From: a virus
Taxonomy: Duplodnaviria > Heunggongvirae > Uroviricota > Caudoviricetes
DNA: 4,787 nucleotides
IMG/VR virus record: IMGVR_UViG_2698536549_000024
Strand: one strand, 5' to 3'
This document shows positions 1-4,787 of this stretch, piece after piece. The position numbers and the translations under genes were made by a program. Under the pieces are notes generated by a model. The model was not told the DNA's origin and did not search any database. It worked only from the letters and a program-made list of their open reading frames with translations. Every line of letters starts with the position of its first letter. Position 1 is the first letter of the stretch.

Positions 1-2295
1 CCGTTTCTCATCCAGTACCGGCGTCACCTGAATGCTGTTGTTTCCGGCAAACTCAAAAGCCAGTGTGTGCCATCCGTTATCAAAGACCCCGAACGTATCC
101 AGCTTCGCATTCTGCTTCTTGTGGTACATCGCGTTCAGGTTCGTCGCATCCGTCTGCAGGAAGAAGGACATCAGCATGTCGTTGCCTTCCTCTGACAGCG
201 TCACTCCCTCCGGCAGGGACGACAACTGCCAGTAAATACCCAGGGCAAACTGATTCGGCACCAGTGCGCCCGGCACCTTAAACCGCACGCTCACACGTCC
301 GCCTTTCTTCAGCAACTCTGCCCCCTGCCCTGCGGCATCATGCTCCAGAAACCAGATGTGGCTTTCCGGTTTGTTCAGTTGCAGGGCCTTACCACCGGTG
401 GCACCCTCATCACTGACCACAGCCTCAGCGATGTTTTTATTAACACTGTCTCCGCTCGCCGGTTTGTGATAATAGCGCCAGCCCTGTGATGCCAGGTCTT
501 CACCGGACGCCAGCAGACTNNNNNNNNNNNNNNNNNNNNNNNNNNNNNNNNNNNNNNNNNNNNNNNNNNGTCACCTGAATGCTGTTGTTTCCGGCAAACT
601 CAAAAGCCAGCGTGTGCCATCCGTTATCAAAGACCCCGAATGTATCCAGCTTCGCATTCGGCTTCCTGTGATGCATCGCGTTCAGGTTCGTCGTATCCGT
701 CTGCAGGAAGAAGGACATCAGCATATCGTTACCTTCTCCTGACAGCGTCACCCCCTCCGGCAGGGACGACAACTGCCAGTAAATGCCCAGGGCAAACTGA
801 TTCGGCACCAGTGAACCCGGCAACTTAAACCGTACACTCACACGTCCGCCCTTCTTCAGTAACTCCGCCCCCTGTCCGGCTGCATCATGCTCCAGAAACC
901 AGATGTGGTTTTCCGGTTTGTTCAGTTGCAGAGCCTTACCTCCCGTAGCCCCCGCATCACTGACCACCGCTTCAGCAATGTTTTTGTTAACACTGTCTCC
1001 GCCCGCCGGTTTGTGATAATAGCGCCAGCCCTGTGATGCCAGGTCTTCACCGGACGCCAGCAGACTCATCAGGGTTCGGTTACTGACCGGGGCTTCCGCC
1101 TCTCTCTCCGGACCTTCACCGGAAGGTACGGTGGGCCTCACCATATCAGGCTGTTTTCCGGTAATGAATTCAGCGGTTCTCCCGGCGTGCACCAGAATCG
1201 CCGTTGCCAGACGGTCGGAAATAATCCCCCGGCGAGCCCAGGTGCTGAAATGGCTCGCCCTGTCCTGTGACGTCCAGGTGGCTGAGCTGTCACGCCATTT
1301 CGAACCGTAATACCCGATACCCGGAATGTCCGGGTCTTCTTCCGGTTTGTTCGTCGGCACATTCACCCCGTTCTCATCCGTCATGAACGGTACGAAATGG
1401 ATATTCTTTTCCGTTTTGTTTTTATAGCTGCCGTACACCATCTGGTAGGTGGATTCGTTCTTCTGCTTCCAGAAATACGTCGTGTCCCCGCATATCCAGG
1501 GAACACCGCCAGCAGAGCCACCAACGCACTGACCTGCCATATCCGTCAGGTCTGCACGGAATTTATCAACCAGCGCACCAAACTGTGCTGCGTGATTTCC
1601 GGGCGTGCCGTCAAAATCAAATTCCCCCTGCATCCACACCACGGCAAACAGCACATTTTTCGGGTTCTTCTTCAGTGCTGCTTTTGTTCGACCGATAAGG
1701 TCCTTATACAGCGGCTTGTCCACACCCCAGCGCGCTGAATTCTCCGAGGCACCACTCGCGTCACTGTATGTGCCATCAGCTCCGGTGGTGAACGCTGAAC
1801 CACCACGACAGCACGGAACCAGCAGAATACCCGCATTCGCCGGTATAAACGGCAGCAGTTTTTTGGCGATATGCAGCCCCTGCCCCACNNNNNNNNNNNN
1901 NNNNNNNNNNNNNNNNNNNNNNNNNNNNNNNNNNNNNNNNNNNNNNNACTGCGGCGCGCCAGCTGCTTAATACGCGGGTCCGGACGGTCATATGTCTCCG
2001 GCAGCGGAAGACCTTCACCATACGACATGCCATTTGACTGCCCTGCCAGAACCACAACAAAGTAATACTCCGGGTCGCTGGTGGCACTGACAGCCACCGC
2101 CTTACCCTCATTACCGGTCACCGCCACTGGTGTGGTGACATCACCTTCCGCCGCAATGGCCTGCATCAGGGTATAAGGCGTGATGACCACCGGACTGCCA
2201 AATGGCTGCCAGCCCTCCTTCAGTTTTTGTGTCAGTCGTTCAGCAAGGTCTGACGGCGATGCCGCCCTGACCACATCGTAGTGTTTAAATGCCAT
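1..2295 (-). CDS. nanS-p: Prophage-type sialate (9-O-acetyl-N-acetylneuraminic acid) O-acetylesterase, NanS-p-like; 3' end runs off the window; interrupted by two N-runs
   Basis: Seen: ATG is the reverse complement of cat at 2293-2295, preceded by GGGAGG with a 4-nt spacer. The N-terminus MAFKHYDVVRAASPSDLAERLTQKLKEGWQPFGSPVV... continues to ...YYFVVVLAGQSNGMSYGEG. After the 1889-1947 gap the frame stays open from 1888 to the 520-569 gap and, by my hand translation, continues open to position 1 (...NNSIQVTPVLDEKR). Established knowledge: GQSN is the catalytic-serine block of the SASA/SGNH sialate O-acetylesterase family, and the N-terminal region resembles the DUF1737 segment of phage NanS-p proteins. 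Inference: assignment is from recalled motifs, not a search. The track splits this gene into ORFs 1672..2295 and 500..1888 only because the N-run lengths shift the frame. Confidence 0.75.
23..519 (-). repeat. Intragenic tandem duplication, copy 1 (distal, C-terminal copy of the duplicated domain in the esterase gene)
   Basis: Seen: 23-519 aligns base-for-base with 570-1066 at a fixed offset of 547 nt. I counted about 38 mismatches over 497 aligned bases (about 92% identity). Minus-strand translation of copy 1 (SLLASGEDLASQGWRYYHKPASGDSVNKN...NNSIQV) is about 93% identical to copy 2. Confidence 0.9.
520..569. other. N-run (50 nt): assembly gap or mask at the junction of the two intragenic repeat copies
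   Basis: Seen: 50 consecutive n. Codon phase on the minus strand differs on the two flanks (lowest codon coordinate is 2 mod 3 above the gap and 1 mod 3 below). Continuity therefore needs a true length of 1 mod 3, such as 49 or 52, not 50. Confidence 0.95.
570..1066 (-). repeat. Intragenic tandem duplication, copy 2 (proximal copy)
   Basis: Seen: same alignment as copy 1. The two copies are separated only by the 520-569 N-run. Most differences are third-position or conservative, so both copies stay open in frame. Confidence 0.9.
1889..1947. other. N-run (59 nt): assembly gap or mask inside the esterase catalytic domain
   Basis: Seen: 59 consecutive n. Complete codons abut both edges (1948-1950 above, 1886-1888 below), so an intact gene needs a gap length divisible by 3; 59 is not. 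Confidence 0.95.
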
Positions 2296-2494
2296 GAATC
2301 CTCCCGGCCGGGATAATGTTCTGAGTCAGAGAAGGCACGGACTGACCTCCGGAAACACAAAAGTCACACAGAAAAACAGCCCGCAAAAAAGAAATACGCC
2401 CTTACAGTTGCGCAAGGTGATTACTCTAAGGTATTATTAGGGTGCTGAATAAATTACTTCACGTTTTGTTATTTATTCCTTGCTTCCTTGCCAA

Positions 2495-2521
2495 CCGCTC
2501 TTCCCGGGAGCGGTTTTTTTT
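2495..2521 (+). terminator. Candidate Rho-independent terminator, plus strand
   Basis: Seen: stem ccgctc (2495-2500) pairs with gagcgg (2508-2513) around a 7-nt loop, followed by T8 (2514-2521). Confidence 0.5.
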
Positions 2522-2527
2522 ACATGT

Positions 2528-2552
2528 AAAAAGGCTCCTGCGATGAGGAGCC
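2528..2552 (-). terminator. Candidate Rho-independent terminator, minus strand (T0), convergent with the plus-strand terminator
   Basis: Seen: on the minus strand, hairpin ggctcc / 8-nt loop / ggagcc (2533-2552) is followed by T5 (reverse complement of A 2528-2532). It is separated from the plus-strand terminator only by ACATGT. Confidence 0.45.
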
Positions 2553-2801
2553 TGGATGTATGCCTAATCTCTGTATACTGCAGGTGCCGGGTGCCTCCCG
2601 GTGAACAAATGTCCGTGATATCAGTCGGCCACACAGGAAATGATACGATATCACCCCTCCGCACAGGGGGATTCACCATGCCCGTTTTTTTTAACAAACT
2701 CCTCATCAATCAGACAATCATCAACCTCATGAATTGTGAGGAATTTAACATTTCACAACACAGCCTTTTCCCTGCATAAAAAAGCCCCTCCGGAGAGGGG
2801 C
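2553..2801. repeat. Non-coding repeat unit R1 (complete) of a tandem array with about 260-bp period
   Basis: Seen: conserved blocks shared with R2 and R3. Hairpin X tgccgggtgcctcccggtg (2585-2603); hairpin Y cccctccgcacaggggg followed by attcaccATG (2654-2680); block Z gaattgtgaggaatttaacatttcacaacacagccttttccc (2731-2772); then A6 plus a GC hairpin (2778-2801). Confidence 0.85.
2778..2801 (-). terminator. Strong candidate Rho-independent terminator, minus strand (T1)
   Basis: Seen: 7-bp GC-rich stem gcccctc/gaggggc with a 4-nt loop (2784-2801), followed on the minus strand by T6 (reverse complement of A 2778-2783). On the plus strand the same hairpin is followed by ttcgct, which is not a U-tract. 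Confidence 0.7.
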
Positions 2802-3061
2802 TTCGCTACGTGTCTGTTAACCATATGCATGATGCCGGGTGCCTCCCGGTGAGTTCAGTATCAGCACCTGAACCCGCACAGAAAGGATAGAGTAGAAACA
2901 CCTGCGCTGATATGCCCCTCCGCTCAGGGGGATTCACCATGCAGAACTTTTTTAACAACTCCCCCTCAGACAGGCAAGCATCAACCATCTGAACTGTGAG
3001 GAATTTAACACTTAACAACACAGCCTTTTCCCGCACAAAAAAAGCCCCTCCGGAGAGGGGC
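2802..3061. repeat. Non-coding repeat unit R2 (complete)
   Basis: Seen: hairpin X at 2833-2851 (identical to R1), hairpin Y at 2915-2941 (cccctccgctcaggggg attcaccATG), block Z at 2991-3032 (cacttaacaacacagccttttccc), then the terminator hairpin. Block spacing to R1 is 248-261 bp. Confidence 0.85.
3037..3061 (-). terminator. Strong candidate Rho-independent terminator, minus strand (T2)
   Basis: Seen: the same gcccctccggagaggggc hairpin (3044-3061), followed on the minus strand by T7 (reverse complement of A 3037-3043). Confidence 0.7.
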
Positions 3062-3280
3062 CGATCGCTATGTATACACCATAAGCAGCATAGTGCCGGG
3101 TGCCTCCCGGTAGATTCAGCCTGACTACTGAATCTGCGTATTGTGACCATCGCTATGGAGACCATGTCAGACGCCCCTCCGCACAGGGGGATTCACTATG
3201 CTGGCTCGTTTTTACAAGACTTCCATCGATCAGACAATAGTCCATCAACCGAATTGTGAGTCATTTAACATTTCCATGAG
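3062..3280. repeat. Non-coding repeat unit R3 (truncated and diverged: lacks the CA-rich motif and the terminator)
   Basis: Seen: hairpin X at 3094-3111, hairpin Y with ATG at 3174-3200, partial block Z gaattgtgagtcatttaacattt at 3251-3273. Homology is lost after about 3275. Confidence 0.75.
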
Positions 3281-3519: not shown

Positions 3520-3798
3520 TTATCCACGGGATATAATTTTGATTTCATCAAAACCGTTACTACCTGCAATTCTGTTGTACTCCTGAACAAGACTCAGTAA
3601 CTCCGAATTAGCCGCGGTGAACTCCTCACAGACGTTCCGAAGTGCATCTACATCCAGAAGAACCATCTCCTGACCTGAACGTCGATCAGGGGTACAAAAT
3701 AAAACTGTCAGACGACTGAAGACCTTTGTTCGTTCCACATTGACGGCTTCAATACGCTGTAACAGTTGGCTACATCTGATTTTCTCATCAATATTCAC
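3520..3798 (-). CDS. Hypothetical protein (92 aa), function unknown
   Basis: Seen: open frame with a GTG start (reverse complement of cac 3796-3798), weak GGTG Shine-Dalgarno, TTATAAT about 18 nt upstream. The translation is protein-like but I recognise no motif. It is co-oriented with and 89 bp downstream of the AraC-family gene. Start codon is uncertain. Confidence 0.4.
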   Translation of the reverse strand: MNIDEKIRCSQLLQRIEAVNVERTKVFSRLTVLFCTPDRRSGQEMVLLDVDALRNVCEEFTAANSELLSLVQEYNRIAGSNGFDEIKIISRG

Positions 3799-3887: not shown

Positions 3888-4613
3888 TCAGATAACGTCT
3901 GCTTTCTGCAAATATGCATAGCTCTCAGGTGGTGCACCATAATACTGGTGAAATACAGAAATGAAATAGGACTTACTTGAGTAACCACATTTTTCCGCTA
4001 TCGCTTGTCCACACTCTCGCTGGAAACATACAAGATTAACAGCAACACGCATTCGCTCCTCCAGCAACAACCGACTAAAGCTATAACCTTCATCCTTAAG
4101 TTTTCGCTTCAACAAGCTTTCGCTCATATGCAATTGTAATGCAATCACACCTAGCATCCAGCCTGCCGATATGTCGGTCTGAATTATAGCCCTTACTTTA
4201 CAGCTGATATTATTTACAGCACCGGACAAAAATAATGGCAGACGCCTGTCTGTTGCAAATAAGGAGATACATGAAAATGCGGTTATAACAGAGAAATCCT
4301 TCAAAGTATCACTGGATTCACTATGCTGGGTTATTAAAGCCTCCGCCAGTTCCGTATTGTAAATATCAGACATCAAATAAAGAGGCATTTTTGTCGGTGT
4401 ATACTCCGTCAGTTCACACTCCCTTTCCAGATACTGATTGACGACGCTGTTACTTATATCTGCCATTTTCACTCTGTCGGCATAAGCACAGAAAAGCCCT
4501 CTTATATTTCTGGCAACAAGCATAACACTTCCGGCATCGAGTGAAACTTTTTCTTTTTCAAGAAAAATATCTATCGGATAGCGAATCAGGACCACAGAGC
4601 AGGCAACATCCAT
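3888..4613 (-). CDS. AraC/XylS-family transcriptional regulator, GadW/YdeO/GadX-like (comparable to prophage-encoded regulators of the PsrA/PsrB/PatE type)
   Basis: Seen: 241-aa ORF. The N-terminus MDVACSVVLIRYPIDIF parallels GadW MTHVCSVILIRRSFDIY and YdeO MSLVCSVIFIHH as I recall them. The C-terminus has a canonical AraC double helix-turn-helix (SESLLKRKLKDEGYSFSRLLLEERM...IAEKCGYSSKSYFISVFHQYYG). Local composition is clearly AT-rich. Inference: which named paralogue it is cannot be decided without a database comparison. Confidence 0.88.
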   Translation of the reverse strand: MDVACSVVLIRYPIDIFLEKEKVSLDAGSVMLVARNIRGLFCAYADRVKMADISNSVVNQYLERECELTEYTPTKMPLYLMSDIYNTELAEALITQHSESSDTLKDFSVITAFSCISLFATDRRLPLFLSGAVNNISCKVRAIIQTDISAGWMLGVIALQLHMSESLLKRKLKDEGYSFSRLLLEERMRVAVNLVCFQRECGQAIAEKCGYSSKSYFISVFHQYYGAPPESYAYLQKADVI

Positions 4614-4676
4614 TTTGAATTAACCTGAGCAAAAAGACTTAATACCAGTATATTCCAAAAATGGCATTTTGGGAGA

Positions 4677-4787
4677 TTACTTCTGCAAACCGCTCCCGCT
4701 AAATACATCCCTGATTTCCTGCGCAGTCTGTTCAAAACGCCCGGTATCCAGCTCAACGCCAGTTGCACGACGCCCCAGCGCCATCGC
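4677..4787 (-). CDS. 3' end of an unidentified upstream gene (last 36 codons; partial at the window edge)
   Basis: Seen: minus-strand frame open from the window edge to TAA (reverse complement of tta 4677-4679), giving ...AMALGRRATGVELDTGRFEQTAQEIRDVFSGSGLQK*. The segment is GC-rich, unlike the adjacent AraC gene. A short independent ORF starting at the internal Met cannot be excluded. Confidence 0.4.
   Translation of the reverse strand, partial: AMALGRRATGVELDTGRFEQTAQEIRDVFSGSGLQK

Follow-up and report, generated by a model that had tools for sequence, protein, structure and literature searches.

An AraC-type regulator in the late region of Escherichia coli lambdoid prophages is a divergent relative of PsrA and PsrB

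The window analysed here, a stretch of 4,787 nucleotides of Caudoviricetes DNA (IMG/VR record IMGVR_UViG_2698536549_000024), carries the gene of an AraC/XylS-type regulator that sequence comparison identifies as a divergent relative, or paralogue, of PsrA and PsrB, known from prophages of E. coli O157:H7 as regulators of secretion, and as an uncharacterised third Psr lineage. The gene is likely a moron of the Q-to-lysis region of lambdoid prophages, whose product would act on gadE- and hdeA-type promoters for acid resistance. Psr-type prophage regulators are already known, and the window gene adds a lineage to them.

The regulator gene

The features of the window are the following.

4677–4787, minus strand: 3′ end of an N6/N4 DNA methyltransferase gene, the last 36 codons and the stop (translation)
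4647–4652, minus strand: −10-like box TATACT, candidate promoter of the regulator gene, approximately 33 nt upstream of its ATG (alignment of psr-family loci)
3888–4613, minus strand: psr-family AraC/XylS regulator gene, 241 aa (ATG-to-TGA open reading frame (ORF), Pfam, RefSeq WP_000382066.1)
3909–4238, minus strand: C-terminal double helix-turn-helix DNA-binding half of the regulator, residues 126–235 (PsrA identity, GadX structure match)
3520–3798, minus strand: 92-aa gene, product a predicted helical hairpin (phrog_2873, E 1e-46)
3035–3230, minus strand: STnc100 sRNA gene, copy 1 (Rfam RF02076, 119.5 bits)
2772–2971, minus strand: STnc100 sRNA gene, copy 2 (Rfam RF02076, 141.2 bits)
2522–2710, minus strand: STnc100 sRNA gene, copy 3 (Rfam RF02076, 132.1 bits)
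1–2295, minus strand: nanS-p-type carbohydrate esterase gene (DUF1737, SASA and DUF6645), running off the window (Pfam)

The RefSeq entry WP_000382066.1, named 'helix-turn-helix domain-containing protein', corresponds exactly to the regulator ORF. Residues 158–232 match the Pfam family HTH_18 (47.3 bits, cut-off 33.6), and the protein also matches HTH_AraC (41.5 bits, cut-off 26.6) and phrog_1450 (E 4.8e-92). The C-terminal domain of approximately 100 aa contains two helix-turn-helix motifs, as in the AraC/XylS family, and the best solved relative of the DNA-binding half is the DNA-binding domain of GadX (3mkl, E 1.9e-18). The first-pass annotation had described a GadW/YdeO-like AraC regulator whose two ends parallel GadW and YdeO. 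The domain scores and the intact 241-aa ORF bear out this description, and both ends align: the N-terminal M-x-x-x-C-S-V-(I/V) motif and the C-terminal double helix-turn-helix can be superimposed on GadW, YdeO, AppY, PatE and PsrA without large gaps. The dN/dS ratio, calculated against three diverged homologues, is 0.16–0.21, which indicates a coding gene under purifying selection rather than a chance ORF. An AlphaFold2 model of the regulator from a 12-sequence alignment was too poor to use (pLDDT 44.7, pTM 0.32), and in PADLOC neither the regulator nor the 92-aa protein matched any defence system.

The regulator gene has a G+C content of 41.3%, compared with 55.9% for the esterase gene (1–2295) and 57.9% for the methyltransferase 3′ end (4681–4787), in agreement with the earlier remark that it is more AT-rich than its flanks. 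That remark had been extended to an independent acquisition of the gene, which does not follow, because the relatives are all AT-rich as well: psrA and gadW have 42% G+C, gadX 41%, ydeO 39.5%, patE 35% and appY 32%. Low G+C is thus a trait of the family and no proof of acquisition apart from the neighbouring genes.

Placement within the Psr clade

Reference proteins were drawn from annotated genomes. ECs_1087 of strain Sakai, which carries the name psrA (PMC13502914), served as the PsrA reference and was read as 237 aa, starting at an ATG upstream of the annotated one. O157 has a second copy, ECs_2191 in prophage Sp11, which is 90.7% identical to ECs_1087; this fits the published PsrA–PsrB identity of 90% (PMC10877973), and ECs_2191 was therefore taken as PsrB. 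Both genes (L006 28678–29391 and L021 1933–2646) are annotated as 195 aa in NC_002695.2. The in-frame upstream ATG of each extends the product to 237 aa, fits the family N-terminus MxxVCSV and yields the length of most of their database homologues.

In BLASTP comparisons, the window regulator is 58.2% identical to PsrA and 58.6% identical to the presumed PsrB (239 aa aligned in each case), followed by PatE (36.9%, 233 aa), GadW (35.3%, 238 aa), YdeO (31.3%, 230 aa) and AppY (31.2%, 237 aa); the match to GadX (41.3%) is confined to the C-terminal 121 aa. The alignments with GadW, YdeO and AppY are collinear over the full length and include the N-terminal half, which places the protein in the GadX/GadW/YdeO/AppY group. 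The first-pass annotation had proposed this comparison, with best hits outside the GadW/YdeO clade counting against its assignment; the best hits lie within it, and PsrA and PsrB lead them at 58%. The nearest NCBIfam models are YdeO (E 1.4e-34, 119.8 bits) and GadX (E 2.2e-26, 92.6 bits), with scores far under the equivalog cut-offs of 348 and 500, and an orthologue of YdeO or GadX was rejected on this basis.

In neighbour-joining trees, a Psr clade that includes the window regulator and excludes PatE, GadW, GadX, YdeO and AppY was recovered in 200 of 200 bootstraps, so that the earlier guess of a PsrA/PsrB-type protein pointed to the right clade. Inside it, the window regulator forms a separate sub-branch with the proteins P0066 and P0005, and P0066, a 242-aa E. 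coli protein with 63% identity, is its sister in 186 of 200 bootstraps. 'Six additional Psr homologs' are mentioned in the literature (PMC10877973).

Identity to PsrA is unevenly distributed: 46.7% for the N-terminal half, rising to 72.7% for the DNA-binding half. Both recognition helices are nearly identical to those of PsrA: helix 3 reads SESLLKRKLK in the window regulator and SESLLKIKLK in PsrA, and the second recognition helix reads SYFISVFHQYYG and SYFISVFHRYYG, respectively. The single-residue differences are Arg versus Ile or Thr in helix 3 and Lys versus Trp or Arg in helix 6. Lys169 of the window regulator aligns with Lys170 of AppY, where the substitution K170E abolishes DNA binding (PMC10057817).

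Distribution

Of 5426 complete E. coli genomes, 80 carry the regulator gene at 99% identity or higher, each time in the chromosome. Each of the 80 has an intact ORF, and at least three different prophage backbones are represented among them. Many carriers have STEC names or come from cattle. They include strains of O113:H21 and O91:H21, serogroups described as LEE-negative STEC (PMC2681110, PMC6455142). None of 50,697 phage records contains the gene; the best translated match among them, at 59%, is in an Stx2k phage. Homologues among 5.8 billion proteins are from E. coli and Shigella only, and all are generically named.

Prophage position and synteny

The slot of the regulator is in lambdoid prophages, between antiterminator Q or a DNA methyltransferase gene on one side and a nanS-p-type esterase with the lysis genes on the other. 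In strain SMBL (L001), the carrier prophage is integrated beside yecN and cmoA and reads, in phage orientation, Q, two opposite-strand ORFs, a small ORF, the DNA methyltransferase, the regulator, STnc100 copies, the SASA (nanS-p-type) esterase, holin, lysozyme and terminase. The same cassette occurs in N51 and in O113:H21 FWSEC0010 (L008 and L009), in prophages whose Q, head and packaging genes are not those of SMBL and in which only a methyltransferase remnant stands ahead of the regulator; a full methyltransferase gene precedes it in L001, L010 and L011. In RefSeq, the esterase of L001, L008 and L009 is named 'SASA family carbohydrate esterase'.

In Sakai Sp4 (psrA) and Sp11 (ECs_2191), the order is Q, small ORF, psr gene, tRNAs and nanS-p, and L001, L008 and L009 share with these two prophages the Psr-family location behind antiterminator Q of a lambdoid prophage. 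The recurrent order of Q, small ORF or methyltransferase, psr-type gene, tRNAs and/or STnc100, nanS-p and holin was found in Sp4 and Sp11, at the loci of the 60%, 63% and PsrB-type homologues and in an Stx2k phage. A 59% homologue lies directly upstream of tRNAs and stx2k in phage phiSTEC1575-Stx2k, and a 37% homologue lies between Q and holin in phage 1H12. The synteny comparison in EHEC prophages that had been suggested earlier thus finds the regulator in the psrA/psrB slot downstream of Q. The shared Q-to-lysis layout makes it the positional equivalent of psrA and psrB, in a moron hot spot that also carries stx.

This position within the late-gene region, in the same orientation and always close upstream of nanS-p or lysis genes, could also suit a phage-internal regulator that controls nanS-p, STnc100, the 92-aa gene or the lysis genes rather than host genes. 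We regard such a role as improbable, because the downstream neighbours vary between tRNAs, stx2k, STnc100, the 92-aa gene and holin directly, leaving no constant local target, and because many lambdoid prophages have the late region without a psr gene; in Sakai Sp10, for example, no psr gene was found in the same late region.

The regulator had also been placed next to the repeat array and the esterase. It does lie in the same region, but the 92-aa gene intervenes, and the distances are 657 nt to the nearest repeat copy and 1592 nt to the esterase start. The part of the esterase gene that encodes DUF6645 contains two direct repeats of 497 nt each (23–519 and 570–1066), 92.8% identical and separated by 50 N; runs of N occupy 520–569 and 1889–1947. 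Compared with N51, the best genome match, the window has 474 nt more than the corresponding stretch. The repeats and the extra length suggest either a duplicated C-terminal domain or an assembly effect.

Expression signals

The stop codon of the methyltransferase gene (4677–4679) is separated from the regulator ATG by a gap of only 63 nt, and the regulator may therefore be expressed mainly with the phage late genes. A consensus scan of the minus strand upstream of the regulator detected no full sigma-70 promoter, and the −35 element is weak. A TATAAT-like box is nevertheless present at a fixed spot before the start in five diverged psr-family loci (the window, L006, L007, L010 and L011), with divergent sequence around it. 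We infer that the gene has a weak promoter of its own and that induction additionally brings read-through from the Q-dependent late promoter.

The absence of a strong promoter from the consensus scan, together with an AT-richness that makes silencing by H-NS likely, would fit a passenger gene that stays silent and plays no part in the lysogen. This is scarcely credible for an ORF with a dN/dS ratio of 0.16–0.21 that is intact in 80 of 80 genomes across prophage backbones and has a conserved −10 box.

Eight terminator-like sites were found in the window, compared with 1.8 expected from shuffles. Two of the terminator-like type, facing one another, lie between the last STnc100 copy and the start of the esterase gene (2493–2515, plus strand, and 2532–2553, minus strand), and every STnc100 copy ends in its own GC-rich hairpin and T run. 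For a terminator after the 92-aa gene the evidence is at the level of pattern, as the segment 3440–3530 folds no better than shuffles (z = −0.16).

The STnc100 array and the 92-aa gene

The repeat array consists of three tandem STnc100 copies with a 260-nt period, each of which spans the whole RF02076 model and scores above its gathering threshold of 47 bits. Copy number varies among otherwise near-identical loci, with two copies in SMBL, three in the window and in N51, and four in O113:H21 FWSEC0010. In N51 and FWSEC0010, a further STnc100 lies upstream of the methyltransferase remnant, so that the regulator cassette is bracketed by copies. STnc100, which is related to PasD, is described as a general sRNA marker of Stx-type prophages beside esterase genes (bioRxiv 10.64898/2026.05.13.724894).

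The 92-aa gene is unannotated in the RefSeq loci L001, L008 and L009. Its product shares 62% identity with that of the ORF located after the P0066-type regulator, and the dN/dS ratio of the gene is 0.28–0.30. The AlphaFold2 model of the protein (pLDDT 82) consists of two long helices; Foldseek against the PDB returned only non-specific helical hairpins, none at E ≤0.001, and Pfam gave no match even at E up to 10. A pairing with the regulator would resemble AraC regulators that have small anti-activators, although the 92-aa protein is no member of the ANR family. Proteins of that family (Aar-type) are smaller than 10 kDa, with three helices and signature residues that include two conserved tryptophans (PMC4983702); the 92-aa protein has no tryptophan and two long modelled helices, and membership was rejected.

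The proximity of the array had raised the idea of a combined protein-plus-RNA moron, in which the regulator would have arrived with the STnc100 array and would function jointly with it. The two are neighbours on one strand of the window, and STnc100 brackets the regulator cassette in two genomes. The components nonetheless assort independently, leaving a joint unit unsupported: the regulator and the 92-aa gene occur without STnc100 in L011–L013, the regulator and STnc100 without the 92-aa gene in L010, the 92-aa gene and STnc100 without the regulator in phage mEp460_ev081, and STnc100 with nanS-p without the regulator in 122 phage records. STnc100 is also found upstream of nanS-p in Sakai Sp4 and is missing near the 63% homologue, and two to four copies accompany an identical regulator. 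These observations, and the status of STnc100/PasD as general Stx-type prophage markers, make a composite moron very improbable. Quite unlikely, too, is a joint reading in which this Psr sub-lineage, which seems to be frequent in LEE-negative STEC, does more than duplicate PsrA or PsrB: the regulator would have its own regulon or input, the 92-aa protein would form a regulator–modulator pair with it, and the flanking STnc100 copies would be recombination sites that move the cassette between prophages.

Likely role

Besides the prophage-encoded regulators, GadX, GadW and YdeO act on gadE. PsrA and PsrB induce gadE and yhiF and thereby repress type III secretion (PMC10877973, PMC8565820). PsrB binds the promoters of gadE and hdeA, PatE also binds the hdeA promoter (PMC10877973), where it acts on the same region as PsrB (PMC10877973, PMC8565820), and AppY binds gadE P3 (PMC10057817). 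The characterised members of the group, down to 31% identity to the window regulator, all converge on gadE and the acid fitness island (PMC10877973, PMC10057817). This convergence, combined with the 73% identity to PsrA in the DNA-binding half, makes activation of gadE and hdeA the most likely function, and the window regulator probably binds gadE/hdeA-type promoters and raises glutamate-dependent acid resistance.

In the mechanism that we propose from these sequence relationships, the regulator would be transcribed at a low level in the lysogen, from its own weak promoter with the conserved −10 box; induction would add read-through from the Q-dependent late promoter. Dimers probably form via the N-terminal half of the protein, and its two helix-turn-helix motifs probably bind AT-rich sites within the acid fitness island, namely in gadE and hdeA-type promoters. 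Binding would lead to more GadE and greater glutamate-dependent acid resistance and, in LEE-positive hosts, would secondarily lower type III secretion. In LEE-negative hosts, which the O113:H21 and O91:H21 carriers may be, given how their serogroups are described, only the acid-resistance arm could apply, as a secretion arm would have no target.

Against a shared function stand the N-terminal half, with 47% identity to PsrA, and the one-residue changes in both recognition helices, owing to which site preference and input signals may differ from those of PsrA. A Psr-clade protein with a different regulon, such as one resembling that of AppY (hya, app, biofilm, motility) or one particular to LEE-negative STEC, would be consistent with these differences, with the separate sub-branch shared with P0066 (186/200) and P0005, and with carriers in O113:H21 and O91:H21, described as LEE-negative (PMC2681110, PMC6455142). 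We consider this reading unlikely, given the convergence of even the most distant characterised members on gadE and the acid fitness island (PMC10877973, PMC10057817) and given that the helix 3 sequence SESLLKRKLK is identical in PatE, an activator of hdeA and gadE.

Comparison with the closest known systems

The closest known systems are PsrA (Z1789; ecs1087, Sakai Sp4) and PsrB (Z2104; presumed ECs_2191, Sp11). They are of the same length class (237 versus 241 aa), collinear with the window regulator over the full length with 58% identity overall and 73% in the DNA-binding half, and they share the Q-to-nanS-p prophage slot, the AT-rich composition and the upstream −10-like box. The window regulator differs in forming a separate sub-lineage with approximately 42% amino-acid divergence, in having a DNA methyltransferase gene, or what remains of one, ahead of it, and in being followed by the 92-aa gene and the STnc100 array, whereas psrA and psrB are followed by the tRNA genes ileZ, argN and argO. 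It is also rarer, psrA/psrB-type DNA being present in 726 of the 5426 genomes compared with 80 for the window gene.

psrA and psrB are reported to be associated with Pch regulators and type III effector loci (PMC10877973), and in Sakai pchA and pchB lie between the lysis and the packaging/terminase genes, near psrA and psrB. No pchABC-type gene was found between the lysis and terminase genes of L001, L008 and L009; the only PerC-family gene of L001 is of the yfdN type and lies in the early region. The effector genes of Sakai Sp11 are at the tail-fibre-distal end, a region beyond the reach of the carrier loci read.

PatE (Z0321/ECs_0287, prophage CP-933H/Sp1) is likewise a prophage AraC regulator of the same group with an identical helix 3, but its identity is 37% and patE is found next to an IS element where a degraded prophage ends, outside the Q-to-lysis slot. 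GadW, GadX and YdeO share the domain plan and the N-terminal CSV motif of the window regulator. They differ in being chromosomal regulators with 31–35% identity over the full length (GadW and YdeO) or 41% over the C-terminal 121 aa only (GadX), and the window gene is no orthologue of them and lies outside the acid fitness island. AppY, from the DLP12 prophage of K-12, also belongs to the group, is prophage-borne and activates gadE directly (PMC10057817), and its DNA-binding lysine is kept in the window regulator. The identity is 31%, however, and appY adjoins ompT close to the end of its prophage rather than following Q.

Implications

Through PsrA, PsrB and PatE, prophages can wire themselves into the master switch of host acid resistance and thereby into type III secretion. 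A third Psr lineage is unlikely to surprise a specialist, yet it would extend this wiring beyond O157-type EHEC. The lineage occupies the position that stx has in Stx phages and occurs in serotypes such as O113:H21 and O91:H21; the fact that it exists would suggest that acid resistance, and not the control of secretion, is the benefit common to the whole family.
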